Source: Candidatus Poribacteria bacterium (GTDB taxonomy: Bacteria > Poribacteria > WGA-4E > WGA-3G). Taken from it: a DNA stretch of 47,148 nt. A program made the position numbers and the translations under genes. The notes beneath the pieces are model-generated. The model did not search any database. It worked only from the letters and a program-made list of their open reading frames with translations, and was not told the DNA's origin. Positions 6,345 to 47,148 of the stretch are shown piece by piece; the stretch's first letter is position 1, and the number at the start of each line of letters is the position of its first letter. The DNA is taken from positions 1 to 47,148 of the forward strand of contig VXZK01000303.1 of NCBI GenBank assembly GCA_009845545.1, in the 5' to 3' direction.

Positions 6345-8741
6345 TTACTTCTGTATTAGCATCTTGCGTGTAGCCGTGAAATCACCAGCGGTCAGCGTAT
6401 AGAAATACAGACCACTTGCCACAGGTTCACCGAACGCGTTTTTACCATCCCAATACGCCGTACGACTGCGATTTTGGTACTTACCCGCAGCTTGATGCCC
6501 AAGCGTCAATGTCCGCACCAACGCACCGTTCATAGCGTAGATATGCAGTGTAACATCCGCACCCTTCGCCAAGTGATACGGTATCCACGTTTCAGGATTG
6601 AACGGATTGGGAAAGTTTGGCAAAAGGGCACTCTCTTTCGGTGTCAACGCTACGAGGAGTTGTTGTAAAAATCGGATACCGCGTGTGAATTCATATCCGT
6701 GAGATTCAGGTTTCAAGTGCTGAGCAGCGGATAGCCACTGTTTGACATCTGTAGCAGTGAGCATTTCTAAGGCTTGCAGATGTAAAGAAGGTGCGGAGGC
6801 ACTTGTTCCCAATGCTCCAGCGACCAAGACAAGATCAGCGATGTTGACGACACCATCACTGTTGACATCTGCAGCGTTTGATCCTGTCTGGCCGAGATTT
6901 GAAGCAACCAATACCAAATCGGCAATGTTAACAGTGCCATCACCGTTCACATCGCCTGTGAGTTTAGTGGGTTCAGTTATTTCAGCGTTTTCAATCTGAG
7001 GCGCAAACGTTTCACCTGTGCTGTTGGAGACAAGGACATCAGATAATGTCAAAGTAGATGCCTTCACTGCGATGACTTCAAAGGTGAGCGTAGCGAGGGT
7101 GCCGTCACCGTTGCTTTCGCCCGCAGTAGAGGCAGCGTTGAGTTTCACAAGATTCCCTTCCAAAATCGGAGGGACAAAAAATGCGCCATCAGGTAGATAA
7201 TCACTGTTACGACTTTCCACGTAACGGAAAGCAGTGTCGTCGAACCGCACGGTTGCTTGGTAACCTGCAACATTTTTACCGTTAGTAATTTTTATGGACA
7301 ACTTGAGCAGTTGACCAATATTGGGGGATGGCACACTCATGGGCAAGAGGCTTACCGTATCTGATCGATTTCCTGCATCGTTATCAGTATTCATATTCTT
7401 CATATTCATATTATAGAATAGTCTTGGATTGCCAAACACAAAGTGATCGCAAGCATTTCTTCCAAGATCATCGACTTCAATAGTAAGTCTTTCAGTGCCT
7501 TTAGGAATATCAAAATCAATACTCGTGTCCCTATTATTAACGCTTAGCGTTCCTGACTTGTAGATTTCTACGTCATCAGCGTAAACTATAACTTCAATGG
7601 ATACCAGACCAGCGCATGATGTCATGTCGAGGTATGAACTAAACTTTGTATAAACTTTATCAGAAATATCGTAGATAATACGACTTGGAGCATGTGAGTA
7701 CATCCAGTGATCCCAGCTATCCATATGAGGAGAATTTCTGTAATCGACATGCGGTTTATCAGATGTAACCCCATCTGGAGTTTTCTCCCATATGCCTCCT
7801 TCCCAGCCATCCCAGTCTTGAAGTCCGTTTATAGGTACTAAAGAATCAGGAGTATCGTAACTAAACGTAAGGGCAACTGAATTTTTATTGATCTCAGTAT
7901 CTGTAATATTTACAGCAACAGTGGAATTTATCGGAATTCCCATCTCTTCTGCTATAGCTGCAACAAATTTTTTATTTTCGATATTTACATTTCTGTACCA
8001 TTCCTGCATATACTCGGACATTACTGATGTTGAATTTGGCATCTGTCGCACAACATTCCATGCTTCAGGGTTTTCTTCAAATATATGCAAAAACTTATAT
8101 GACAACTGCGATACTCTTGTATAACTAAACGCTCCGCTATCGTGATCTCTTAGTTTTACTTCCCATTCTTCAAGCCAATCAGCACCTGATCCATCATACT
8201 GGACTTCTGGTCTACTTGTCTGCCATCTATGGTGATCTGCTAAAGTATGTCTGTAATCTCTCCAGTTATCGTATGGTGGGTCAGTTTCCCAAGTTTTACT
8301 CATTCTACGAAGAACCCATAGGTTAGCGAGTTCGCATATACCTTCAAGAAACCATCCATTAGGATTACCTTTGAAATCTTCAAAGTTATGCATTAGATGA
8401 CAGAATTCATGTCCAAACTGATAGGATAAATTAGCCCAATCTCTATCAGTGATATACAAACCTATTTTATATTCGTCTTCTTCACCGCCAAATGAATCTC
8501 TATAAAAAGCCTTTGGGTTGTTATTATTCCAGACTATAGTTAGTTTACCTTTAACTTTTAGATCGTTATCAAGGTGTTCTTGAAAGTGAAGTGCGACATT
8601 CTCGCATAGTCTTTTAATGTTAGAAACTTTGGCGTTTCCCCATCTGGCATCATCTTCAACTGTTATGATTAAATTTGCGAAGCTTATAGTAGGCAACAAC
8701 AATAATGCCAGTACCCAGAAAAAAACAATTCTTTTAAACAT
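6345..8741 (-). CDS. Secreted multidomain protein: HExxH metallopeptidase-like region, NPCBM-like module, cohesin-like domain, dockerin repeats, FlgD-Ig/T9SS-type C-terminal domain
   Basis: Start chosen at ATG 8741 (MFKRIVFFWVLALLLLPTISFA signal); the longer ORF to 8951 runs into the IS. HEFCH at 8397-8411. NPCBM-like ~7413-7721 (ends ...CDHFVFGNPRL). Cohesin-like ~6987-7343. Dockerin GDVNGDGTVNIADLV...DVNSDGVVNIADLV at ~6810-6956. C-terminus NFPNPFNPETWIPY...GLYFYTLTAGDFTATRKMLIQK. Confidence 0.75.
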   Translation of the reverse strand: MFKRIVFFWVLALLLLPTISFANLIITVEDDARWGNAKVSNIKRLCENVALHFQEHLDNDLKVKGKLTIVWNNNNPKAFYRDSFGGEEDEYKIGLYITDRDWANLSYQFGHEFCHLMHNFEDFKGNPNGWFLEGICELANLWVLRRMSKTWETDPPYDNWRDYRHTLADHHRWQTSRPEVQYDGSGADWLEEWEVKLRDHDSGAFSYTRVSQLSYKFLHIFEENPEAWNVVRQMPNSTSVMSEYMQEWYRNVNIENKKFVAAIAEEMGIPINSTVAVNITDTEINKNSVALTFSYDTPDSLVPINGLQDWDGWEGGIWEKTPDGVTSDKPHVDYRNSPHMDSWDHWMYSHAPSRIIYDISDKVYTKFSSYLDMTSCAGLVSIEVIVYADDVEIYKSGTLSVNNRDTSIDFDIPKGTERLTIEVDDLGRNACDHFVFGNPRLFYNMNMKNMNTDNDAGNRSDTVSLLPMSVPSPNIGQLLKLSIKITNGKNVAGYQATVRFDDTAFRYVESRNSDYLPDGAFFVPPILEGNLVKLNAASTAGESNGDGTLATLTFEVIAVKASTLTLSDVLVSNSTGETFAPQIENAEITEPTKLTGDVNGDGTVNIADLVLVASNLGQTGSNAADVNSDGVVNIADLVLVAGALGTSASAPSLHLQALEMLTATDVKQWLSAAQHLKPESHGYEFTRGIRFLQQLLVALTPKESALLPNFPNPFNPETWIPYHLAKGADVTLHIYAMNGALVRTLTLGHQAAGKYQNRSRTAYWDGKNAFGEPVASGLYFYTLTAGDFTATRKMLIQK

Positions 8742-8760
8742 TTTATTCTTCCTGTTTATT

Positions 8761-9785
8761 TCTAAACGTGAGTTTGATAAATATTTGAAAGTTTTTGAAT
8801 AAAGAGAACCCTTTTGGTATAATGAAACAATCTCTAACTTCCAAAAGGAGTTCTCTGATGAGTATTCTAACACTTTTCTGTAATATTGACGACTTTTTTC
8901 TGCTTCACGAGAAATGGAAGGCAACACATTGTCTACCGGAGACGACAACACCGGAAATACGTGGACGCCCTCGGCAACTGCATCCGAGCGAAGTGATGAC
9001 GATCCTTATTGCTTTCCACCAAAGCAACTATCGGACGTTTAAACACTTTTACAACAAACATGTTTGTGTCTATTGGTGTGCGGAGTTTCCGCATTTAGTG
9101 AGTTATTCTCGGTTCGTTCAACTCAAGAAAGAGGTGTTGATGCTCTTGACGCTTTATCTTCATGCTCAGCTCGGTGAATGTAGCGGTATCTCCTTCGTGG
9201 ATTCGACCCGTTTGCGGGTTTGCGATAATAAGCGGATCTCCTCACATCGCGTCTTCGCTGAACATGCCGGACGCTCGAAGACTTCAATGGGATGGTTCTA
9301 TGGTTTTAAACTCCACCTCATCATTAATGAGAGAGGGGATCTCTTAGGTTTTCAAGTGTCTTCGGGGAATACGGATGATCGTCAACCTCTCTGGGAGTTG
9401 TCGCCGGATAGCCTGTTCGGCCCCCTTTATGGCGATAAAGGGTATATCTCGAAAGACCTCCGTACGTTTCTCAAGGAACAAGGTATCAACTTGTGCTATA
9501 AAGTCCGTAAGAACATGAAACCGCTGGAGTTATCCGTTTCCGATGAGGTGCTATTGAAGAAACGGTCGATTATAGAATCAGTGATAAAGGCGTTGAAAAC
9601 GCAGACGGTGCTTGAACACAGTCGTCATAGAAGTTTCGCGAACTTTCAAGTCAACCTTATTTCTGCGTTGATTGCGTATCAACTGCTGGAGAGCAAGCCC
9701 TCGGCGAACATATTGGAACTTCAAGGAAGCAACGACTTACCCGTGCTTTTCTAACGGATAAACTTTTTTCAAACTCACGTTTCTA
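8761..9785 (+). mobile_element. IS982-family insertion sequence (~1.0 kb)
   Basis: Terminal inverted repeats: AAACGTGAGTTTGA at 8764-8777 and its exact reverse complement at 9769-9782. They enclose a single transposase ORF. No clear target-site duplication found. Confidence 0.75.
8858..9754 (+). CDS. IS982-family DDE transposase
   Basis: ATG at 8858 follows AAAAGGAG. MSILTLFCNIDDFF..., FVDSTRLRVCDNKR, SMGWFYGFKLHLIINERG, YGDKGYIS and RSIIESVIKALK match IS982 transposase signatures as I recall them. Confidence 0.85.
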   Translation: MSILTLFCNIDDFFLLHEKWKATHCLPETTTPEIRGRPRQLHPSEVMTILIAFHQSNYRTFKHFYNKHVCVYWCAEFPHLVSYSRFVQLKKEVLMLLTLYLHAQLGECSGISFVDSTRLRVCDNKRISSHRVFAEHAGRSKTSMGWFYGFKLHLIINERGDLLGFQVSSGNTDDRQPLWELSPDSLFGPLYGDKGYISKDLRTFLKEQGINLCYKVRKNMKPLELSVSDEVLLKKRSIIESVIKALKTQTVLEHSRHRSFANFQVNLISALIAYQLLESKPSANILELQGSNDLPVLF

Positions 9786-16278: not shown

Positions 16279-16653
16279 GTGGATATGCAAAGGATAATTG
16301 TCTGGGGGACTGTCTTAGGCGTAATCATCCTTGTAGGCATTGGAATAATCTATGCCTTGCGCGCGCCGCGCACAGCCCCAAAAACCTATCCAGCGGATAA
16401 GGGACCTAACTTTATTGATGTTACTGCCTACCCTGCGAAGATGCAGGAGGCTTACGAACTCTTCACCAACAAGTGTAGTCGATGCCACACTGTTGCACGT
16501 CCCATTAACTCTACCTTCATGCCGGAAGAGTGGCGAAAGTATGTCTATAAAATGATGCGGAAGCCGGGTTCAGGGCTTACGCCGAAAACCGCTGAAGAAA
16601 TAATTAGATTCCTCATTTACGATGCACGGCATAGGGAGCGAAAAACAAAATGA
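16279..16653 (+). CDS. Small membrane-anchored c-type haem-binding protein (single CXXCH)
   Basis: N-terminal TM helix. FTNKCSRCHTVARP...EEWRKYVYKMMRKPGSGLTPKTAEEIIRFLIYD resembles the haem-binding domain type C-x-x-CH...W...RM...L...E..I..YL. Start uncertain (GTG 16279 or ATG 16285). Confidence 0.55.
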   Translation: MDMQRIIVWGTVLGVIILVGIGIIYALRAPRTAPKTYPADKGPNFIDVTAYPAKMQEAYELFTNKCSRCHTVARPINSTFMPEEWRKYVYKMMRKPGSGLTPKTAEEIIRFLIYDARHRERKTK

Positions 16654-17780
16654 TTGTTACGCGTAAAATTCACGCTATAGTAACACGCTTGATGTTGGCG
16701 ATATTATTTTCTCTAATAGGCATGCAAATCGGATTCACTGAAGAGGATAATATGAAAAAAAACGATTTTCAGGTTTCAGTAGACGCACAGCGTATTGAAT
16801 TTACCAAGCCCGCTATTTTCAAAGACGGCGCATGGTTGGTGCCTTTGGAGCGGTTCGCCAAACACCTCGAATTGAAGGTAGAATACCCGGAAGGCACGGA
16901 AATGGTGGTACTTTGCGACGGTGTGGAATCAGAACTCTGTGTACCACTCCAATTCCAAGATGGAAAGGCGGGGGCTGTGGACATTGAGGGTGTAACTTAT
17001 GTGCAACCGGCGTCCCTCGCGAAAACCTTCGGCTTTGAAATTTACAAAGCATCAGCGAACACGCTGGAGATTATCCAACCGGTATATCTCGCTCCCGAAT
17101 TCACGCTCCCTGATTTAGAGGCGAACCCAAGACATTTAAAAGAGTTTCGCGGGAAAAAAACGTTTCTCTATGTTTGGGGCTCATGGTGAGGGTGTCGTGG
17201 ACAACTGCCGGGCTGGCAGGAATTTTACGCTAAACACAACGAAGCGTTAAACTTTATCTCAATCGCACTGGATGCCCAAGGCGCATCTGTTGTACGTCCT
17301 TGGCATGATGCTGCGAATGCCGATTTTGTTACACTTATTGATTCACAGAATATTTTTGGCACCCGTTATAACCTCAAAGCGATTCCTTACGGGATCATGA
17401 TTGACGAAGCTGGACGGCTGGTGAAAGTACCTTTCAACGTTAATGTCAAAAATCAAAAGCACCTTGTAATGCTCGAAAAGTGGTTGTCGGATCCTGACTA
17501 TAATGCGATGCTGCTTCACGAAATGAAACCCTCAAGCGAGCCGCTTGTAAAAACGAATGCTGAAGCAGCTGCACGCTTTCAACTCGGGCTCGTCTTATTG
17601 GAAGGCGGGAAAAAGAAGGAAGCGATAGCGGAATGGCGAAAGGCACTCGCGTTAGATCCGCAAAACTGGATTATCCATAAGCAAATTTGGGCAGTTGAGC
17701 ACCCAGACAAATTCTATAAAGGTAGTGTTGATTACGCTTGGCAGAAGACGCAGTTAGAGTCGGAGAAAAGCCAACGGTAG
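16650..17780 (+). CDS. ResA/TlpA-like thiol:disulfide oxidoreductase, candidate selenoprotein (in-frame UGA at 17187-17189), with TPR-like C-terminus
   Basis: ORF-track fragments 16650-17189 and 17397-17780 share one frame with no other stop between them. Read-through gives FLYVWGSW-U-GCRGQLPGWQEFY at the position of WCxxC in ResA/TlpA. Thioredoxin-fold features continue downstream (AIPYGIMIDEAGRLV). Start overlaps the upstream stop (ATGA). Confidence 0.7.
17205..17219 (+). promoter_or_regulatory. Candidate bacterial SECIS hairpin
   Basis: CUGCC-GGGCU-GGCAG begins 15 nt after the UGA at 17187-17189. Confidence 0.4.
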
Positions 17781-18086
17781 GCACAGGGGCTATCTGACGG
17801 AGCACAGATCCTTTTTCAACCGAACTCTATTTTCAACACTTTGTCTAAAAGAATAACACGTGCTCAATATAGGTCGGAACGTTTTGCTACTTTAGTATAA
17901 AATTTACTATGCTGTCTGTAGTCTTAGATGCCGCGTATGCGAATATCCTAACATATCGATGTCTGAGAAACCATTTTTATTAAGAATCGGCGTTGATACT
18001 TTATTCCAGGTCGGTTCCGCTTCTTAGAGATACGCGGATCGCAGAGAGCCGATAGAATCTTATCGATAATGTAGGTGGAGGAAATA

Positions 18087-21000
18087 ATGAATACAAGAGA
18101 AGGTTACGCAGAATTACAAACAAAAATTTTAGATGCCAGACGCGTTTGGAAACGTAGTATTTTTTGGGCTGGATTCGCTATCGTTCTGACGGGCATAATT
18201 GCCGTATTTGTGGGTGAGGCTATCATTGATTGGTTAATGCCCTTGCCAAGTTTTGTGCGAATTGCTTTGTTAACAGCCGGGGTCGGCGTGACGGGGTACC
18301 TGCTCTATAAGTATCTTCTTCAACCGCTCCGAGCGGCACTCACGCTCCGTGATATCGCACTCAACGTTGAGCAGAATCACCCTGACCTTGAAGATAGATT
18401 AGTAAGTGCAATTGAATTCGGCAACCGCGAGCCAACGGATCCAATTGAAGCGCACATGCTCCAACGCCTGATTCAAGATACGACGCAGCGCGTAAAAAGT
18501 ATTGATTTTAAAGCAACAGTCGATCATAGCCGGACCCGCAAGCATGTCGGCATCGCGGCTTTAGTTGTTGTCGGCTGCTCTGTACTCGCCCTCATATTTC
18601 CAACAGAACTCCATACCAGTCTTCTCCGCGTATTGGTCCCTTGGGAGAAAACTGAACCCGTTTTGACGACGAAACTAACTGTTGAACCCGGAAGTGTACG
18701 TATCCTTCGCGGTAAAAGCCTACCTATTCACGTCACTGTCACCGGAAAATCTGCTGAGAAGGTTGTTTTGGCTTATGAGAATATAGAGAACCGAGAAACC
18801 ACCGCCTCCGAATCGGAAACAACCCAGCAACAAATTAATATGTTACAAAACCCAGACGATAAACGTGGGTTTGCTTATGAAATTTTTAACATTGACGCAG
18901 ATATCGAATACTACGTTGTAGCGAACGAGACCACTTCGGAACGCTATACTGTTGAAGTCTTTGAGATGCCGAAGGTAACGGAAATTTCCGTGGCTTACAC
19001 TTATCCAGGCTACACAGGCCTTAAACCCGTCGTGCAAACTGGGACGGGGGACATTCAAGCCGTCGTTGGAACACAGGCGGAAATAAAACTCACGACCAAT
19101 AAAGCCATTCAAACTGCAACATTTGCTCTGAAGATGGATGTTAAGCCTGAAAAAGACGAAACTCAGGAACCTGCTTCAACCCAGATGGTTATCTCCGACG
19201 GGAACATCCTTACAACAACTGTAGATGTTATCGCGGACGGGACATATACCGTTGAACTTCTGGGCATTGATGGTTTCAATAACGAGATACCCATTGAATA
19301 CGCCATAAAAGCCATCCCGGACGCTGGACCGGAGGTTGTGATAAAGGAACCTGGGCGCGATATCAAAACGACAAAGTTGGGTGAAGTGGAAATCATCGCT
19401 GAAGCCACAGACGATTATGGCATCGCAGCACTAAAACTTATGTATCGCATCGGGTCTGACGAACTACACGAGTTAACCTTGGAAACCTCCACGCCTGATG
19501 CTATTGATACCGGGCAACGCCGCGTAGCAGACGGTAGTTATACATTCTACCTTGAGGAATTTGATGTCGAACCGGGCGATATTATCTCCTACTACGCACA
19601 CGCTGTCGATAATAACACGCTCACTGGGCCCAGCGAAGCGAGTAGCGATATTTATTTTATTGAAATCCGCCCGTTTAATGAAGATTTCCAAGAGATGGAG
19701 GCAGAACAGGGACCCCCGATGCCGAATCCGCTTTTAGAGATACTCACCTCCCAGAAGCAGATTATTCGAGAAACAGCGAAACACATTAGCGCGAAACCGT
19801 CATCAGTTACCGAGGAGTATCGGAGTGCCGTTAAGAAAACCGGGGACAAGCAAGATAAATTGAAGGATAAGACGCAGCGGCTCGCAGATGAGTTTAGCAT
19901 GGCGATGCAAGGCGAATCGCCAATCACGCCCGAGATTCTGATGAACTTGGAGGATGCAATACAAAGAATGCGTGAAGCAACCGATAGCCTGAACGCTGTC
20001 CAACCTGTTGCAGCGATACCCGCGGAACAAGAGGCACTTGAACTATTGATAAAAGTTAATCTTGAACTTCCGACCATACTGATGCAGATGCGGAACAGTA
20101 ATCCCCAACTTGCTGAGAATCTTGAACTCGAAATGGAGGAGCTGCAAAGCGAACTTGAGGAACAGCAGAACGAGCTTGATATGGAGATGCAGGAAGAGAC
20201 GCAGGAGATGTTAGATCAGGCACGTCAAATGTTGGCAGAGCAACAGCAGCTGAGTCAACAGAGCCAGCAGTTAGGACGTGAAAACGAACCATCTCCGAGC
20301 GATATGCAACAGAACAGTCAGCAACAAGGGCAGCTGTCCCAGCAGGCGCAGCAGATGGCACAGCAGCTCAGTACCATGCAGCAGAATGCGCAAGGATCCC
20401 AAGGCCAACGCTTGGATCAAGCCGGTCAAGCGATGCAACAGGCTGGCGAACAGATGGATCAAGCCTCACAAGGCATGCAACAACAAGAACCGCAACTTAG
20501 TGCCGCTAAAGGGCAAAAAGCAGAGGAAAGGCTTCAGGAAGCCATTGAACAGTTGGAAAAGGTCGCATCGGAATTCACCGATGCCGCGCTCGCTAATGCT
20601 GCAGAACAGGTCCAGCAGTTGATAGATGAACAATCCGGTGTCCAACAGGAGACACAAGAACTCAGGAACCGCTCTCAGCAGTTAGAAATGCGACCCGAAG
20701 ATTTCCGAAAGGCATCTGAACTTGCTAACGAACAGCGAGAACTTCAACAGGATCTCGAAGCACTTGAGAATACACTGGAGAACTTGCCGGAGCAGCTCCG
20801 TGAGGAGAACCCAGAGGCAGCCCGAAATGTAACGGATGCTACCAGACGGCTCACTGAAGAGCAGACTGCCGGGGATATGTCAACCGCACAACGCGCCCTG
20901 CAATGGCGTAGTTTCCGCGCCGCTGAACTGAATCAACAAGAGGTCGTGGAGACCCTCAGGCAGGTACAGGGAGATCTGCAACAGGCGCAAGCCAATATGG

Positions 21001-21572
21001 CAAACACCGAAGAAGAACAGCTCGAAGCCGCACTTCAGCAGCTTCAACAATCGCGGGAACAGATGGAGGACATCCAACGCGAACTTCAAACTATGGACGG
21101 GCAAGAGCAGACGGAAGAACAACAACGCCGTCAGCAACAACTCGCTGAGCAACAGCAACAGATTCAGGAGCGCATGCAACAGGCGCAACAAGCCATGCAA
21201 GATGGGCAGGAAGGACAACAACCCGGTCAACAGCCCGGACAACAACCTGGGCAGGAAGGACAGCAGCCCGGGCAGGCTGAAGGGGACGGTGAGAACCAAG
21301 AAGCACGCGCCGGGGGGCGGGAATCCGGACGTGAAATTAACGAACTCTGGCTCGATCTGCTGAATACTATGGACTATCGCCCTGGAAATCGCTCAAATCC
21401 GTTCCCTAACTATGAATTCGTTATTCGGGACTTGACGAAATTGGAAGCCGCACTTGAAGAGCGACTCAACACACTTCAGGAGAAAAAACGACTCTTCCAA
21501 GTCGCCAAAGAGGAGGTCCCGCCTGAGTACCGACGGCTCGTTGATGACTACTACGAGTCTTTGTCACAGTAG
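18087..21572 (+). CDS. Large membrane-anchored, Q/E-rich coiled-coil protein (DUF4175-like)
   Basis: ATG at 18087 follows GGAGG. Two N-terminal TM helices. Central ...DIYFIEIRPF... motif, then a very long Q/E-rich low-complexity region including GQQPGQQPGQQPGQEGQQPGQ. C-terminus EVPPEYRRLVDDYYESLSQ is typical of this family as I recall. Confidence 0.6.
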   Translation: MNTREGYAELQTKILDARRVWKRSIFWAGFAIVLTGIIAVFVGEAIIDWLMPLPSFVRIALLTAGVGVTGYLLYKYLLQPLRAALTLRDIALNVEQNHPDLEDRLVSAIEFGNREPTDPIEAHMLQRLIQDTTQRVKSIDFKATVDHSRTRKHVGIAALVVVGCSVLALIFPTELHTSLLRVLVPWEKTEPVLTTKLTVEPGSVRILRGKSLPIHVTVTGKSAEKVVLAYENIENRETTASESETTQQQINMLQNPDDKRGFAYEIFNIDADIEYYVVANETTSERYTVEVFEMPKVTEISVAYTYPGYTGLKPVVQTGTGDIQAVVGTQAEIKLTTNKAIQTATFALKMDVKPEKDETQEPASTQMVISDGNILTTTVDVIADGTYTVELLGIDGFNNEIPIEYAIKAIPDAGPEVVIKEPGRDIKTTKLGEVEIIAEATDDYGIAALKLMYRIGSDELHELTLETSTPDAIDTGQRRVADGSYTFYLEEFDVEPGDIISYYAHAVDNNTLTGPSEASSDIYFIEIRPFNEDFQEMEAEQGPPMPNPLLEILTSQKQIIRETAKHISAKPSSVTEEYRSAVKKTGDKQDKLKDKTQRLADEFSMAMQGESPITPEILMNLEDAIQRMREATDSLNAVQPVAAIPAEQEALELLIKVNLELPTILMQMRNSNPQLAENLELEMEELQSELEEQQNELDMEMQEETQEMLDQARQMLAEQQQLSQQSQQLGRENEPSPSDMQQNSQQQGQLSQQAQQMAQQLSTMQQNAQGSQGQRLDQAGQAMQQAGEQMDQASQGMQQQEPQLSAAKGQKAEERLQEAIEQLEKVASEFTDAALANAAEQVQQLIDEQSGVQQETQELRNRSQQLEMRPEDFRKASELANEQRELQQDLEALENTLENLPEQLREENPEAARNVTDATRRLTEEQTAGDMSTAQRALQWRSFRAAELNQQEVVETLRQVQGDLQQAQANMANTEEEQLEAALQQLQQSREQMEDIQRELQTMDGQEQTEEQQRRQQQLAEQQQQIQERMQQAQQAMQDGQEGQQPGQQPGQQPGQEGQQPGQAEGDGENQEARAGGRESGREINELWLDLLNTMDYRPGNRSNPFPNYEFVIRDLTKLEAALEERLNTLQEKKRLFQVAKEEVPPEYRRLVDDYYESLSQ

Positions 21573-21671
21573 TTCGAGGATACACTTTTGCTGGCGAGGT
21601 TTCAAACCTCGCCAGCATTGGATGCGGTATTATTGTTAATTGTTAATCTACAAATGATTGGAAAATCTACT

Positions 21672-22484
21672 ATGGAGTTTAAAAGTAAAAATATTGTCAC
21701 GCCGGGTGAGCTCATCAACTTAGACGATTACGCGCCCGAGTATACTGGGACTTACGAAAAAAAAGGTCAAACGAAGCGCAGATTGAAAAAGTTACATAAG
21801 CAGCTGCTGGAACTTCAAGGGCTGCTTTACGCGGAAAGCCAACACGCACTTCTTATCATCCTGCAAGGCATGGACACATGCGGCAAAGATGGGACTATTC
21901 GGAAGGTGATGGGGGGTATCAACGTCCAAGGCTGCGATGTTGTTAGCTTCAAGGTTCCAACCGCGGATGAACTCTCTCGTGATTTCTTATGGCGCGCACA
22001 CAAAGCCGTTCCATCCAAGGGAAAGATCGGCATCTTTAACCGTTCGCATTATGAAGATGTCCTCGTTGTTCGGGTGCATGATCTGGTGCCAGAGCAGGTC
22101 TGGTCCCAACGGTATCGGCAGATCAACGATTTTGAAAAGATGCTCGTTGAAAATGGAACAGTCGTCCTGAAATTTTTCCTTCACATCTCGAAGGATGAAC
22201 AGAAAGAACGCTTAGAATCTCGGATTAGTGATCCCACAAAACATTGGAAAGTCGAAGCATCCGATATTCGGGAACGCGGCTATTGGGAGCATTATATGCA
22301 GGCATACGAAGTGATGCTCCAAAAATGTAGTACCGACTGGGCACCCTGGTATATAATCCCCGCGAATAAAAAGTGGTATCGGAACCTCGTTATTACAGAA
22401 TGCATCGTAGAGACGCTCAAAAAACTCGATATGAAGTATCCTGAACCGTCTATTGATGTTACCCAACTCACGATTGAGGATTGA
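21672..22484 (+). CDS. ppk2: Polyphosphate kinase 2 family protein
   Basis: LLIILQGMDTCGKDGTIRKVMGG...FLWRAHKAVPSKGKIGIFNRSHYEDVLVVRVH is the PPK2 signature (Walker A-like GKDG). Confidence 0.9.
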   Translation: MEFKSKNIVTPGELINLDDYAPEYTGTYEKKGQTKRRLKKLHKQLLELQGLLYAESQHALLIILQGMDTCGKDGTIRKVMGGINVQGCDVVSFKVPTADELSRDFLWRAHKAVPSKGKIGIFNRSHYEDVLVVRVHDLVPEQVWSQRYRQINDFEKMLVENGTVVLKFFLHISKDEQKERLESRISDPTKHWKVEASDIRERGYWEHYMQAYEVMLQKCSTDWAPWYIIPANKKWYRNLVITECIVETLKKLDMKYPEPSIDVTQLTIED

Positions 22485-37889: not shown

Positions 37890-38762
37890 ATGAACGAACC
37901 CCAATTTACTCGGCATCCAACGGAAATATTTGGTTACCCTTTTACTAACAAAGACTCGGTTGTACAAGCGAAACGTGAGGAACAGTTCTGTCCCTTTTTA
38001 AATGGTGAATGTAAAAAACCTCGAAAAAGTCAACCTGAAGTTAAAATTGGGGTTTGCACGCTTGGCTACAAAGGCAAGTTTCTTGAAAAGATAACGCCTG
38101 TTATTGTATGCCCCCACCGTCTTGAAGAAGCAATCGTCTACGATACGCTTAAGGAATTATACTTTGGCGATTTGCCGGATAGTTATCAGATAAGATGGGC
38201 ATCTGAAGTGTCTTGCGGGGTGGCAGGAAGTATTGATTTTGTCGCCGCCAAAATGAAAGAAGAAGAAATAGAAGATTTTTTGTGTGTTGAATTTCAGGCA
38301 GCTGGAACGACTGGAACGCCTTGGCCAGCAGTTATAGACTTTAAACAGACTGGGCACTTTCAAAAGGAAACTTATAAATATGGAATCAATTGGGCGAATG
38401 AGTTTGTCAAAACAATGATGCAGCAGGTTTATAAAAAGGGAATGGTGATGGAGAGTTGGGGCAAAAAAATTGTGTTTGTCATTCAAGATGTCGGGTTGGC
38501 TTATATTCAGTCTACTACTGATGCCCAGGATTTACGTGAGGCGACGGATAACGATGCTATCCATTTTTGTACATTTCGGATGATATGGGATAAAAGTTCA
38601 AAGGCTTGGCAACTAAAATTTGACAAGCGACTGAGTACAGATATAGAAGGTATTCGGAAAATATTAGGTGGGGCTCCTGAAGATGAATTTCCCACCATCA
38701 GCGAGTTTGAAAAGAATATCAACAAGCGATTAAAATTACCAGGTCAATTGAGCGGGGTTTAA
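37890..38762 (+). CDS. NotI-family type II restriction endonuclease (putative)
   Basis: N-terminal four-Cys cluster (CPF...ECKK...GVC...VCPHR) and an IDFVAAK...VEFQAAG (D...ExQ) core resemble NotI features (CPF...GVC...VCPNR; LEIQTMD) as I recall them. Adjacent to a methyltransferase. Confidence 0.6.
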   Translation: MNEPQFTRHPTEIFGYPFTNKDSVVQAKREEQFCPFLNGECKKPRKSQPEVKIGVCTLGYKGKFLEKITPVIVCPHRLEEAIVYDTLKELYFGDLPDSYQIRWASEVSCGVAGSIDFVAAKMKEEEIEDFLCVEFQAAGTTGTPWPAVIDFKQTGHFQKETYKYGINWANEFVKTMMQQVYKKGMVMESWGKKIVFVIQDVGLAYIQSTTDAQDLREATDNDAIHFCTFRMIWDKSSKAWQLKFDKRLSTDIEGIRKILGGAPEDEFPTISEFEKNINKRLKLPGQLSGV

Positions 38763-39803
38763 CCGATTTCTGGCGATTTCTACGTATTCTTCGCTTAGCT
38801 CAATTCCAAGTCCTTGTCTATTGAGTTGATTGGCAGCTATTAAGGTACTTCCTGTGCCCATAAAAGGATCGAGGATAACGCTGCCGATTCGACTGGTCGC
38901 TTTAATCGGCAATTCCAATAACTCAGTCGGAAATACAGCGTAGTGCACATCTTTTCTCCATTCATCCTCTGGAACAATGTTCCAAATATCAGAGGGTAAA
39001 TGCCCTTTGGCGGTGCTTGTCATAATATAAAAGCCTTTTGTTTTTAATTCTTTGGCGCGTCCGCTAACCTCCAAATTGTCGCTGTGGTAGGTGCGTTGTG
39101 CGCCTCTAATTGTCATTCTAAAATCGACTAGCTCGCCTACCTTTATTTTCTCTAACGTCTGATCAAGTGTTTTTATCGCTGCTGCGCGTTCTTGTTCATT
39201 TAATTCCTTAGATTCAAGAATCTGTCTACGATATTTTTTCCCGCTAACGCCTGTAGCAGAAATAATTTTTTTGCCATTGATTTTTGGAAGTTTTTTCGGT
39301 TTAATCCTGATAGCGTCAGTGTCGTAATAATACTTTTTACTTTTGACAAAGTGAAAGATGTGTTCATGAACATCTCTGAGTCTATCCTTCGCACTTTGTG
39401 TTCCTTTCATTTGATGCCATATAACATCATTGCGAAGTATCCATCCATTGTTTTGCAAAGCGAGAGCGACCCGCCAAGGCATTCCCATTAGATTTTTGTT
39501 ATGGTATTTATCGCCAAGATTCAACCATACTGAGCCATCCGATTTTAATACCCGCTTTATCTGGAGAAAGATTCCAGCAAGTCTTTTCACATATTCTTCA
39601 GGTGTTTTTTCCTCACCAATCATCGAATCCGCATCGTTTCCATTGGTGCGATATTTTCTCATTTGCCAATACGGAGGCGAAGTAATAACGCAATCAATGC
39701 TTTCATCGGGGATTTCAGCCAAGATATCTTTACAATTTCCTGTCAATAACCCGTTTTTCTGATTTTTATCAAGGACCTTGGAAATTATCTGTTGATTTGT
39801 CAT
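38736..39803 (-). CDS. Site-specific DNA methyltransferase (N4-cytosine/N6-adenine, beta class)
   Basis: Motif IV ITSPPYW lies N-terminal to motif I DPFMGTGSTLIAA. SPPY favours N4-cytosine specificity. The 3' end overlaps the endonuclease 3' end by 27 nt. Confidence 0.9.
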   Translation of the reverse strand: MTNQQIISKVLDKNQKNGLLTGNCKDILAEIPDESIDCVITSPPYWQMRKYRTNGNDADSMIGEEKTPEEYVKRLAGIFLQIKRVLKSDGSVWLNLGDKYHNKNLMGMPWRVALALQNNGWILRNDVIWHQMKGTQSAKDRLRDVHEHIFHFVKSKKYYYDTDAIRIKPKKLPKINGKKIISATGVSGKKYRRQILESKELNEQERAAAIKTLDQTLEKIKVGELVDFRMTIRGAQRTYHSDNLEVSGRAKELKTKGFYIMTSTAKGHLPSDIWNIVPEDEWRKDVHYAVFPTELLELPIKATSRIGSVILDPFMGTGSTLIAANQLNRQGLGIELSEEYVEIARNRLNPAQLTW

Positions 39804-39975
39804 GTTAATGTTTCCTTCTGAATTGCAGTAAAATTTAATCAGAACGTACAGCGAGGGCCACACCCTTTACTGGAAAGAGCACTAAAGCATAGAGTTTGGC
39901 CGAAAAAGTAATAAAAAATCAGTTGTACTGCACTGTTTTGTTATATCTGAAATTATAGGCGAAAATCGTGTTTCC

Positions 39976-44620: not shown

Positions 44621-45412
44621 GTGGGTGCTATGTTACCTTTTGTCTTGAAAATCGCGGATCAACCTATAGAACGCCTGCAGCGTATCAATGCTGAAAGTCA
44701 GTCTATTGACGTTAATGTGCAAGTTGAACTTTACGCCCGGGAGATTAACCGGGCTGATGTGCCGCGTACGCCAGAGGCACGAAGATTAAGCCAAGTAATC
44801 TTGCACGAAGCCACCGAAAACGCTTACACGACCTTTATCGCGTTTCTCCGAAATAATGCTGAACCTGAAGATTTTCTGCCATTTGAACGCCTCGCGCACC
44901 ATCCTTGCCAGCAATATGCATTGATCCTTTCCACCTCGCGTTCCCATGAACTCTTTGAAATCTGCCAGATGCAGCCTGACGCAAACCCCTCTATTTTCCA
45001 CTATGGCGGATACGAAATAACACTCAAACCCCGCAGACACATCTTGGATACTGCAGCTTATTTGGTAGCACCTGATAAATATACACTTTTTATACGGCAG
45101 GTACGAGAAGAAAACACTATTCGGGTCTACCGTAGCGATTTTATTAACCTCGTCGAGAATTCACCACCGCCATTTAAACTGGATACCCGCGATATAATTG
45201 AGAGTCTACAACTCCAACTTGTTGGCCAAAGAGAGCAACCTTTACCTATAGAACAATTGCTTATGTTTCCACCGAGCACCGAAGATACAAACTCGCCTCG
45301 CATTAATAAGTGCCCTGAGTGTGGCGGCAGCGTACGCCGACTCGGTAGAGAAGCCGATTTCTGCTTAGAGTGCGATTGGGATAATTTGCCACCTCTCAGA
45401 CAGGCACGATGA
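44621..45412 (+). CDS. Hypothetical protein with C-terminal zinc ribbon
   Basis: GTG start follows AAGGAG. C-terminus CPECGGSVRRLGREADFCLECDW (CxxC...CxxC). I recognise no family. Confidence 0.45.
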   Translation: MGAMLPFVLKIADQPIERLQRINAESQSIDVNVQVELYAREINRADVPRTPEARRLSQVILHEATENAYTTFIAFLRNNAEPEDFLPFERLAHHPCQQYALILSTSRSHELFEICQMQPDANPSIFHYGGYEITLKPRRHILDTAAYLVAPDKYTLFIRQVREENTIRVYRSDFINLVENSPPPFKLDTRDIIESLQLQLVGQREQPLPIEQLLMFPPSTEDTNSPRINKCPECGGSVRRLGREADFCLECDWDNLPPLRQAR

Positions 45413-45500: not shown

Positions 45501-46115
45501 TCAAGTTTGACTTCCAAGTTGCGCCATATATAGAACAATCACCGTATTCCCAACAGCAAGTACCGCGCCGACAACGGTTTGGAGGAGCGTGTGACGTTTT
45601 CGATAGACCCGCGCCCATGAAATCAATGGAATCAACAGAAATAGCCAGCCGAATTGCGGGTTAACGAGCATGACAAGCACAGTGACACATCCGGTGGCAA
45701 CGCTACTGTGAAAACTGATTTTCCAGATCGGGGTAATCGCCGAGAAAATGATACTATTCGTGATGTAAGCGATACCTGCCCAAACAATTTCACGTGCCGC
45801 ACCGAGCCGATGGAGTAGAACCGTACCGATAATCATACTCACAAGCGTGCAGCATAAAGGTAAGAGCCGTTCCTCTCTGTTCTGCAGATGAAAATCGCTC
45901 ACTTTCGCAAACCGCACCATCAGTGCTATTGAGAGTGCTGGCAATACAGTAACAAATAGCACAACAATCGCTAACCAACGCAGGGCGTTTTGCGGGTCCG
46001 AATGCTTTTGGACAACACCGACAGCCGTGACGATTGGCACCAAAAATGGGCTGAACAGAACAGAGGTTCCCCACGCAATGCCTGCCGGAATTGTTGATAA
46101 ATTGCTACGCACCAT
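45501..46115 (-). CDS. Polytopic membrane protein, PAP2-superfamily-like (putative)
   Basis: ~6 TM helices. SFHSS and ARVYRKRHTLLQ loosely fit PAP2 motifs 2 and 3. Starts 3 nt after the peroxiredoxin stop. Confidence 0.4.
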   Translation of the reverse strand: MVRSNLSTIPAGIAWGTSVLFSPFLVPIVTAVGVVQKHSDPQNALRWLAIVVLFVTVLPALSIALMVRFAKVSDFHLQNREERLLPLCCTLVSMIIGTVLLHRLGAAREIVWAGIAYITNSIIFSAITPIWKISFHSSVATGCVTVLVMLVNPQFGWLFLLIPLISWARVYRKRHTLLQTVVGAVLAVGNTVIVLYMAQLGSQT

Positions 46116-46118
46116 CTA

Positions 46119-47129
46119 TTAATTTGATGTTTCCAAAGTTTGGAAGAAGTTAACTAAGTCTGTTCCGTGTGTACTGGCGTTGACCGCTTTATCAATTTCT
46201 ACAATCTTCCCTGTTTTATCAATGATGATAGCGGACCGTTGGATTGCGCCATCGGAGGCATCTGTTGCACCGTACAAAAGCGCGAGATTGCGTCCAGCGT
46301 CTACCAAAAGTGGGAAGTTCAACTGGTTTTCTTCAGAAAATTTCTGACGCGAATCTGCGTCATTGTGGGTGATCCCGAAAATCTGGGCATCGTATTTTGC
46401 CAAACGACTCGACTCATCACGGAGCGAGCAAACTTGCGCCGTTCAGCCACGCCCGAAGTCGCGCGGGTAAAACGATAGGACGACGTTCTTTTTCTCGATT
46501 AACTCGCTGAGCTGATAACTTTCGCCTGTACTATCCGTTGCGATGAAATCTGGAGCAGGTTGTCCAACCTCTACCTTCGGTAACACTTCCTTAAGCAGAG
46601 CGACAACATCTTCACCGTGCGTTTTGACATTGACTTCTGTGTCGATCGCGCGGATGTATCCTGCTTTATCAATAATGAAGGTCGTCCGTTTTGAAGCATT
46701 AAAACGCTCAATGATCCCACTGTACTGTTTGCTTACCTCAAATTCGGTATCCGCTAACAGCGAAAACCCAAATTTTTGTTCTGATCTAAACCGTTTATGT
46801 GAATCGACATCGTCAACACTGACACCGAAAAGAACACTTCCGGTGGCTTCTATCTCGCTCAAATTATCCCGGAGCGAGCAAAGTTCAGCTGTTCAGCCAC
46901 CGGTAAAATCTTTTGGATAAAATGCGAGGACGACACTCTTCTGCCCGATATAGTCACTGAGACTCCGCTCAACGCCTTCTTCATCTTTCAATGTAAAGTC
47001 GGGGGCAATCATTCCGACTTTGAGTGTATCTGGAGTTGTCACTGCCTTCTCCCCTGAAGCTACTGCAATCAAAATGGCTGTCGTGAGGATAACAGCCAAG
47101 ATGCTTACATTAAACTTTGTTTGAAACAT
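46119..47129 (-). CDS. Secreted tandem two-domain Bcp-type peroxiredoxin, candidate selenoprotein with two in-frame UGA codons
   Basis: ORF-track fragments 46893-47129, 46443-46862 and 46119-46403 share one frame, separated only by TGA at 46893-46895 and 46443-46445. Read-through gives [19 protein letters not shown] and [19 protein letters not shown], compared with E. coli Bcp [19 protein letters not shown] (recalled). N-terminal signal peptide; GGAGG RBS. Confidence 0.75.
46408..46428 (-). promoter_or_regulatory. Candidate bacterial SECIS hairpin (second UGA)
   Basis: On the mRNA: UGA, 14 nt, then CUCGCUC-CGUGAU-GAG-U-CGAG (7 bp with one bulged U, 6-nt loop containing GU). Confidence 0.45.
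46854..46878 (-). promoter_or_regulatory. Candidate bacterial SECIS hairpin (first UGA)
   Basis: On the mRNA: UGA, 14 nt, then CUCGCUC-CGGGAUAAUUU-GAGCGAG (7-bp perfect stem). Confidence 0.45.
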
Positions 47130-47148
47130 CGAACTATGCCTCCATAAG

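Follow-up and report, generated by a model that had tools for sequence, protein, structure and literature searches.

A 47,148-nt stretch of DNA from the sponge symbionts Candidatus Poribacteria (contig VXZK01000303.1 of assembly GCA_009845545.1; the whole stretch is referred to below as the window) carries on its minus strand, at 46119–47129, one gene that public annotation has wrongly cut into three small genes. This single gene very likely encodes a protein, predicted to be exported to the periplasm through the general secretory (Sec-type) pathway, in which two peroxiredoxin (Prx) domains of the Bcp/PrxQ type are fused and an in-frame UGA in each domain is read as selenocysteine (Sec). Taken by itself, the decoding of both UGAs as Sec within a single polypeptide is highly probable. 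We refer to the gene and its product as the tandem Prx.

Results

Reading frame and annotation

The complete coding sequence (CDS) of the tandem Prx extends from an ATG at 47129 to a TAA stop at 46121–46119, and direct translation of this minus-strand frame gives 336 sense or recoded codons, i.e., a predicted protein of 336 aa including two Sec residues. The only in-frame interruptions are a TGA at 46895–46893 (codon 79) and a TGA at 46445–46443 (codon 229). No stop separates domain 1 from domain 2, and the read-through is continuous. An earlier note on this DNA had claimed both that a single frame is broken at just these two codons and that the domains are joined without a stop in a frame of 336 codons, and on translation it proved exact in each respect. 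The peptide sequences around the two codons, which the note had quoted correctly, are P-KDF-T-GG-U-TAEL-C in domain 1 and P-RDF-G-RG-U-TAQV-C in domain 2. A Shine-Dalgarno-like GGAGG, read directly, is located at 47139–47143 on the same strand, 9 nt 5' of the ATG at 47129, and the GGAGGCAT region upstream of the ATG is kept in close homologues, where it appears in translation as ...RRHNA-M or WRHSA-M.

In the list of open reading frames (ORFs) the locus consists of three same-frame pieces of 78, 139 and 94 aa. Public records hold fragments of these same lengths as separate CDSs, under the names “redoxin domain-containing protein”, “peroxiredoxin” and “hypothetical protein” (MYA70117.1, MYA70116.1, RKU08885.1), so that the fragmentation by gene callers foreseen in the earlier note has indeed taken place. 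The 139- and 94-aa pieces are entered as separate CDSs in NCBI and JGI records alike. In other pipelines the full length is obtained only via translation with code 4, which puts Trp at both Sec sites.

Two Bcp/PrxQ-type domains

Domain 1 comprises residues 36–183 (46581–47024, minus strand) and contains the motif P72-KDF-T76-GG-U79, followed by C84 and Arg148. Domain 2 comprises residues 185–336 (46122–46577, minus strand), with the motif P222-RDF-G226-RG-U229 followed by C234 and Arg298. The Pfam family PF00578 (AhpC-TSA) matches with an E value of 6.2e-69 in two stretches (residues 38–161 and the second half of the protein), and PF08534 (Redoxin) matches residues 188–317. The two domains are 41% identical to each other over 145 aa without gaps, and domain 1 is 31–35% identical to solved Bcp/AhpE structures. 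In alignments with the solved Bcp structures 3drn and 2ywn, UGA-1 (46893–46895, minus strand; Sec79) falls on the peroxidatic Cys (Cp), and UGA-2 (46443–46445, minus strand; Sec229) occupies the peroxidatic position of domain 2. Domain search and structural alignment thus agree with the placement of each TGA at the peroxidatic position that had been put forward earlier. It is also Cys that aligns to the UGA in Cys-type homologues, at 146 sites in 137 loci, as well as in the Cys/Cys tandem protein P0021 and in the PDB alignments.

By comparison with these and other families, we classify both domains as Bcp/PrxQ-type and not PrxU. The Bcp family of NCBIfam (NF006960) scores 175.7 bits against a cutoff of 140, a value that is summed over the whole protein; each domain alone would lie near or below the cutoff. 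Membership in PrxU (NF040737) was rejected at 108.7 bits against a cutoff of 270, and the SelL-related and WAxxUGC families were rejected with scores far below their cutoffs. An AlphaFold2 (AF2) model was built on P0001, a homologue that is 94% identical to the window protein and has W at both sites. The model has a predicted local distance difference test (pLDDT) score of 86.9 and a predicted template modeling (pTM) score of 0.83. In Foldseek comparisons, each half of the model matches the structures of Bcp1, BcpB, AhpE and PrxQ with template modeling (TM) scores of 0.85–0.90, and none of the solved structures among the matches spans both halves.

Conservation of the fusion and of both UGA codons

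When one genome was scanned for each GTDB species, the two-domain gene turned up in 21 genomes, 20 of which are labeled Candidatus Poribacteria and one “uncultured bacterium” (51–93% identity). A further copy, L081, lies on one metagenome contig, and over all 22 homologous loci, for which the DNA was extracted, identity is 48–93%. Together with the window these loci give 23 sequences, each with two UGAs, for a total of 46 sites. The closer relatives share the RuvABC/YebC/QueA neighborhood of the window. Both sites are TGA in all 22 loci (23 of 23 with the window), no other in-frame stop is present, and the terminator is TAA or TAG; across the 46 sites the catalytic codon is always TGA and never TAA or TAG. 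The earlier note had proposed inspecting homologues for Cys versus UGA and for the fusion, and this inspection found UGA at both sites and a conserved two-domain architecture.

The protein database holds full-length homologues of 321–371 aa with W at both positions (P0001–P0014, P0016 and P0017, i.e., TGA read with code 4), and in P0015 only domain 1 has W, domain 2 being degenerate. The homologues with W also carry TGA, because the gene caller had switched those contigs to code 4. Ratios of nonsynonymous to synonymous substitution rates (dN/dS; Nei-Gojobori, 11 informative pairs) have medians of 0.06 for residues 36–78, 0.08 for residues 80–228 and 0.12 for residues 230–336, with the synonymous rate (dS) in the same pairs often above 0.5 and reaching values above 1. 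Since the ratio is low in all three segments, all three must be translated and constrained. Purifying selection, together with the retention of both TGAs in 22 loci, excludes a pseudogene or a sequencing error, and the earlier contention that the pieces are not pseudogenes is borne out.

Neither domain shows any variation at the catalytic Arg (R148 in SKRTTFIID and R298 in IQRSAIIID; alignment A2). In the aligned sequences, the two domains relax different canonical features. For domain 1, the motif PxxxTxxU is present in all species, and the +5 Cys (C84) occurs only in the window and L001–L007, with N, Q, K or R elsewhere (lost in 15 of the 23 species). For domain 2, the +5 Cys (C234) is present in 23 of 23, and codon 226 (46434–46436) specifies Gly in place of the motif Thr in 13 species, i.e., the window and L001–L012 (PRDFGRGU; FGTGU in L008). 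The other 10 species (L013–L020, L029 and L081) have the full PxxxTxxU in domain 2. A resolving Cys at +5, as described in the earlier note, is therefore found in both domains of the window, but its conservation across homologues is limited to domain 2.

A related two-domain family (P0018–P0020; L161 6001–6990, also L162 and L163) is approximately 50% identical to the tandem Prx. In this divergent Ser/Sec variant domain 1 is degenerate (FCPTELLVGS, with Ser at the Cp position and no PxxxT), and there is no obvious signal peptide. In domain 2 the UGA is kept, with a compensated selenocysteine insertion sequence (SECIS; CUCA-CUC/CGGGAU/GGG-U-UGAG) and a frame that is open beyond the UGA. Gene callers cut this family at 200 aa.

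SECIS hairpins

Each UGA is followed after 14 nt by a hairpin built on CUCGCUC, at the positions where the earlier note had described such hairpins. SECIS-1 (46878–46854, minus strand) has the form CUCGCUC / CGGGAUAAUUU / GAGCGAG, with 7 bp and a stability of -10.7 kcal/mol. SECIS-2 (46428–46408, minus strand) has the form CUCG-CUC / CGUGAU / GAG-U-CGAG, with 7 bp, a bulged U, a 6-nt loop with G at position 2, and a stability of -8.9 kcal/mol. The two elements share the 5' arm CUCGCUC (which encodes C/x-S-L-R) as well as the spacing, and the DNA around UGA and SECIS is approximately 85% identical between the two domains. Exactly two copies of the composite motif TGAAC-N5-A-N2-T-N4-TCRCTCCGKGA are present in the window, compared with none in 100 shuffles.

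The published model of the bacterial SECIS (bSECIS) specifies a stem of 4–16 bp, a loop of 3–9 nt with G in the first two loop positions, a UGA-to-loop distance of 16–37 nt, and a minimum free energy (MFE) of -7.5 kcal/mol or below (PMC13188914). Both hairpins fit this model. The UGA-to-loop spacing is 21 nt at both sites, loop position 2 is G in 46 of 46 sites, and the MFE is -7.5 kcal/mol or below in 37 of the 46 (20 of 23 for site 2 alone). In the control set of 146 Cys-type Prx sites, folding at this same 35-nt offset from the Cp codon gives -5.7 kcal/mol (-5.2 when matched for GC content) versus -9.4 kcal/mol at the 46 Sec sites (p ~1e-13). Over the 64 nt after each UGA, the MFE of the whole segment is no better than that of shuffles (z about -0.5). 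The structural signal is a short conserved hairpin, and not bulk stability.

The stem at site 2 is paired in 97.5% of alignment cells, compared with 29–44% when the 3' partners are slid by 1–3 columns. Two of its pairs are altered on both sides in L020 and L081 (C-G to U-A and G-C to A-U), and L161 has the same compensatory change of G-C to A-U. At site 1, 87% of cells are paired, with a compensatory swap of C-G to G-C in L009 and L011. In the L013–L019/L029 clade the same 5' arm pairs at site 1 with a different 3' arm, which produces an 8-bp stem with a U bulge similar to that of site 2; as a fold for site 1 in all sequences, this alternative (8 bp plus bulge, 6-nt loop) was rejected, as it fits that clade only. 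For the TCA variants at the SECIS, pairing is restored by a shift of register.

Synonymous sites in the same region are constrained. Normalized codon entropy is 0.28 in codons U+1 to U+13 versus 0.75 elsewhere (Mann-Whitney p = 6.7e-10). Leu is encoded by CTC in 23 of 23 sequences at both sites, compared with 4–6 codons in other Leu columns, and Ser is TCG in 22 of 23 and 21 of 21 at the two sites.

Genetic code, Sec machinery and a second candidate selenoprotein

TGA is the terminator of 12 of the 30 other Pfam-supported genes in the window, which have complete domain matches. Because TGA is an ordinary stop in these genes, the genetic code is standard, and a reassigned code is excluded. There is only one other in-frame TGA in the window with coding sequence on both sides, at 17187–17189, and it is a second candidate Sec codon.

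The genes for Sec decoding are reported for the lineage from WGA-3G, a related genome. Table S4 of Slaby et al. 2017 (PMC5649159) lists for Ca. Poribacteria WGA-3G two genes for SelA (COG1921), one for SelB (COG3276) and one for SelD (COG0709), and a contig of this same genome carries the tandem Prx gene (ASZN01000005.1; locus L005). In addition, a 2026 survey includes Poribacteria among the phyla with Sec-type group 4 hydrogenases (PMC13582414).

The gene with the second candidate Sec codon is at 16650–17786 on the plus strand. A hairpin of the form CUGCC/GGGCU/GGCAG (17205–17219) begins 15 nt after the UGA. Read through, the gene gives a product of 376 aa that begins with a hydrophobic segment, contains the motif FLYVWGSW-U-GC in a thioredoxin-fold domain, and has a tail resembling TPR repeats. 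Among NCBIfam models, the best match of this product is NF041054, “ResA-like WAxxUGC motif-containing protein” (E 1.4e-46), with 159 bits, which is below the equivalog cutoff of 300. The site is W (TGA) in one homologue, P0122, and Cys in the others. This candidate selenoprotein supports the use of Sec by the organism.

The N-terminus

By inspection, residues 1–25 (47055–47129, minus strand) resemble a signal peptide, with a Lys at position 5, a hydrophobic stretch and a cleavage-type motif (A-V-A before S), and they contain neither a twin-arginine motif nor a lipobox Cys. All homologues likewise have a basic n-region, a hydrophobic core of 15–18 residues, and AxA-like motifs with acidic residues after them. 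The N-terminal signal peptide of the earlier note thus corresponds to a signal-like segment that is conserved in type across homologues. In the AF2 model there is a low-confidence helix at residues 4–24, which leads into a disordered stretch. These features point to export through the general secretory pathway, and the protein would be periplasmic.

Neighboring genes and other features of the window

A PAP2-like membrane gene (45501–46115, minus strand; 204 aa, polytopic) starts 3 nt after the stop of the tandem Prx (TAA-TAG-ATG); its PAP2 match (E 1.4e-4) is below the cutoff. This gene is directly downstream of the tandem Prx in L001–L012 only, and the two are probably in the same operon in the window clade. 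In other clades, the gene beside the tandem Prx belongs to the shikimate pathway or is a scramblase or TGT. The idea of a conserved redox partner recognizable by synteny was rejected, as neighbors vary by clade with no linked reductase gene; specifically, no DsbD, CcdA, ScsB, TlpA or thioredoxin gene is linked to the tandem Prx in the window and flanking loci.

Between the PAP2-like gene and yebC there is an ORF of 263 aa (44621–45412, plus strand) with a C-terminal zinc-ribbon-like motif (CPECG...CLEC). It has no Pfam or NCBIfam match, and it is conserved at this location in L001–L011 (40–94% identity). The rest of the window contains sulfatases, PhyH dioxygenases, TPR proteins, a cohesin/dockerin protein, and the RuvABC-YebC-QueA genes. 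A NotI-like restriction endonuclease (37890–38762, plus strand) is convergent with an N6/N4 DNA methyltransferase (38736–39863, minus strand) between KduI and QueA. Among syntenic relatives, this restriction-modification pair (37890–39863) is present only in L001 and L003, and it looks like an inserted module. A DDE transposase (8795–9754, plus strand; PF13612, E 8e-61) overlaps by approximately 150 nt the start of an opposite-strand NPCBM/cohesin/dockerin gene of 868 aa (6345–8951). Finally, the region 20001–22000 stands out by its AT skew (0.29, unusually high) and by a GC content (0.51) that is the maximum of the window, which suggests a compositionally biased repeat region in the 1165-aa DUF4175 gene (18075–21572) that contains it.

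Discussion

Alternative readings

If the two TGAs were true stops, the three small ORFs (78, 139 and 94 aa) would be translated separately, or else would be parts of a decaying pseudogene. Public annotation does have the 139- and 94-aa pieces as CDSs of their own, and alternative TTG starts are available 10–13 codons after each TGA. However, each stop interrupts the active-site helix of its Prx fold, with the result that no piece amounts to a complete domain, and the 10 and 13 residues that separate the two TGAs from the next potential start codons rank with the best-conserved parts of the protein. Given also the strong purifying selection on the three segments, the lack of any frameshift or extra stop in 23 synonymously saturated species, and a catalytic codon that is exactly TGA in 46 of 46 sites, we consider true stops to be extremely unlikely. 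Reading TGA as a sense codon (Trp in code 4, Gly in code 25) would put Trp or Gly at both positions, and many database entries of the family do have W there, but these calls are best explained by the choice of code 4 by gene callers on short contigs dominated by this gene. Such a code is difficult to reconcile with the 12 of 30 Pfam-supported window genes that end in TGA, or with the fact that no conserved window gene has an in-frame TGA apart from the candidate Sec codon at 17187–17189. In L013, moreover, it is a TGA that terminates the homologue. With Trp or Gly as peroxidatic residue neither domain would be active, and the probability of such a code is close to nil. The UGAs might instead be recoded with the help of SECIS and SelB, but with Cys inserted by a tRNA(ReC)-type (SelC*) tRNA, in which case the protein would be an ordinary Cys/Cys tandem peroxiredoxin. 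Although tRNAs of this type have been reported in about 13–17% of the genomes analyzed in one survey, nothing points to one in Poribacteria, and SelA and SelD, which are required only for Sec synthesis, are listed for the gene-carrying WGA-3G. Upkeep of UGA and SECIS at two sites in 23 species would also be odd if a one-base change to UGC or UGU gives Cys. Insertion of Cys is thus very unlikely.

A different kind of alternative accepts both Sec residues, but regards the protein as a periplasmic thiol/selenol redox relay or sensor, with domain 2 as a resolving or reducing module for domain 1. The division of canonical features between the domains is in line with this, in that domain 1 keeps PxxxTxxU but is without the +5 Cys in 15 of the 23 species, and domain 2 keeps U-x4-C in 23 of 23 and has Gly for Thr in 13. 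Likewise, in the related L161 family only domain 2 is still a Sec domain, and the pTM of 0.83 suggests a fixed packing of the two domains. On the other hand, the catalytic Arg and the Prx fold are kept in both domains, and with the full PxxxTxxU in both domains of the L013–L020 clade, both could be ordinary peroxidatic sites. We therefore regard a relay or sensor as unlikely. The same holds for its more specific form, an improbable Poribacteria-specific selenium redox relay of the cell envelope, in which domain 1 would react with peroxide and domain 2 would be a dedicated module for resolving and recycling. The exported candidate selenoprotein of ResA-like type, encoded 29 kb away, might supply such a relay, and the two together, if real, would detoxify peroxide in a sponge symbiont through a chain composed of selenoproteins only.

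Several observations count against the reading that we prefer, i.e., an exported tandem peroxiredoxin with Sec at both sites. Neither selA, selB, selC or selD nor a tRNA-Sec is present in the 47-kb window or the 22 flanking loci, and ARAGORN finds no tRNA gene of any kind in them. There is no Rfam match in the whole window (gathering score) or in 46300–47000 (E <= 10), although Rfam may hold no suitable bacterial SECIS model. The loop of SECIS-1 in the window clade has 11 nt, as compared to 3–9 nt in the bSECIS model, unless a predicted GG/UU mini-stem forms, in which case the loop shrinks to the 5-nt GAUAA. Covariation in the stems consists of few independent events (the L020/L081 lineage, L009/L011, and L161), and the 5' arm of each hairpin encodes a conserved S-L-R-D, so that conservation is partly protein-driven, although constraint at the synonymous sites argues for more than that. 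Domain 2 of the window clade has PxxxGxxU without the canonical Thr, which makes its competence as a peroxidase less certain. Lastly, export was judged by inspection only, and the N-terminus may be an uncleaved membrane anchor.

Proposed mechanism

For the tandem peroxiredoxin with two Sec residues, we envisage that each coding-region SECIS in turn would recruit SelB.GTP.Sec-tRNA(Sec) while the ribosome is at the UGA 14 nt upstream. In each domain, Sec would be the peroxidatic residue, and its selenolate would attack peroxide and be converted to a selenenic acid. Resolution of this acid as an intramolecular selenenylsulfide would fall, in domain 2, to the invariant +5 Cys, which lies one helical turn further on, and the +5 Cys in domain 1 of the window genome could do likewise. 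In most species domain 1 would act as a 1-Sec Prx, the +5 Cys being apparently dispensable across the family. The oxidized enzyme would finally be reduced by a putative envelope thiol-disulfide oxidoreductase, and a speculative choice for this role is the ResA-like candidate selenoprotein, likewise exported, that is encoded at a distance of 29 kb. As to origin, we suggest that an ancestral Sec-Prx domain was duplicated together with its embedded SECIS, and that both copies were kept recognizable to the same SelB, because the two sites have a shared 5' arm, the same spacing, and approximately 85% DNA identity around UGA and SECIS.

Relationship to known systems

Sec-peroxiredoxins (T/SxxU) date back to 2001 in the literature and turn up frequently in selenoproteome surveys, and fusions of Sec-Prx to other domains have also been described. 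The prototype of the Sec-Prx family (PF00578, PxxxTxxU) is PrxU of Eubacterium acidaminophilum (Sohling et al. 2001), and the family is listed with one Sec (PMC13188914). The tandem Prx resembles this family in its AhpC/TSA fold, in the predicted location of Sec at the peroxidatic position of PxxxTxxU (exactly so in domain 1), and in having its SECIS in the coding region just 3' of the UGA. It differs in having two domains, two predicted Sec/SECIS pairs and a putative N-terminal export signal, and it differs from PrxU in its Bcp/PrxQ subfamily and in the Gly that replaces the motif Thr in domain 2 of the window clade.

Among families and structures alike, both domains match the Bcp/PrxQ group best (NF006960; E. 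coli Bcp; Sulfolobus Bcp1, 3drn; M. tuberculosis AhpE, 1xvw). Features in common are the Cp-x4-CR arrangement, which every species has in domain 2 and the window also has in domain 1, and the conserved catalytic Arg. The Bcp/PrxQ members that we compared are single-domain, Cys-based proteins without this putative signal peptide, whereas the tandem Prx is a head-to-tail fusion in which Sec is predicted for the two Cp positions and export for the whole protein. Two-domain redoxins of the Cys type (P0021; P0084 from Abditibacteriaceae; L027 from Chthonomonadales) are similar in having a predicted signal peptide, a length of approximately 350–380 aa and an N-terminal Bcp-like domain. They are distinguished by Cys active sites, identities of 30–32%, and a second domain that is mostly a TlpA/thioredoxin-like module; P0021 is the only true Cys/Cys Prx-Prx tandem that we saw, and it is 32% identical to the tandem Prx.

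Bacterial fusions with multiple Sec residues include arsenite methyltransferase/AhpD-domain proteins (three Sec), HUGP/GUXX-star, and the MbdU double selenoprotein (PMC13188914, Table 1). These have at least two well-separated Sec residues per chain, as is predicted for the tandem Prx, and they indicate that bacteria can decode several UGAs per mRNA. However, they join unlike domains or have closely spaced Sec residues, whereas in the tandem Prx one domain is duplicated along with its SECIS. A functional parallel may be found in Caulobacter, where the cell-envelope peroxiredoxin PprX is reportedly reduced via ScsB/TlpA-type proteins. PprX is likewise a peroxiredoxin of the oxidizing cell envelope that depends on an envelope thiol-disulfide reductase, a setting that the tandem Prx would share if it is exported as predicted, but PprX is single-domain and Cys-based.

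A Prx-Prx tandem with two Sec residues is absent from the table of a 2026 review (PMC13188914), in a literature that was otherwise incompletely covered, and the papers retrieved on Poribacteria and selenocysteine or selenoproteins make no mention of the tandem gene. We judge the tandem gene to be real, unannotated and lineage-specific, and the new part would be the Prx-Prx tandem with two Sec residues. Sec-peroxiredoxins, exported redox selenoproteins and multi-Sec fusions are already established, and the finding does not change these concepts.

At this locus, the annotation and the selenoproteome counts for Poribacteria are wrong, due to either fragments or mistranslation with Trp. The gene is a clean natural example of a catalytic domain duplicated with its coding-embedded SECIS, with two Sec codons, predicted to be decoded independently, 450 nt apart on one mRNA, and this two-Sec arrangement is useful for the study of multi-Sec decoding and for the engineering of multi-Sec proteins. 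For the organism itself, a sponge symbiont that is abundant and uncultured, the tandem Prx would add an exported, selenium-based peroxide defense to what is known of its biology.

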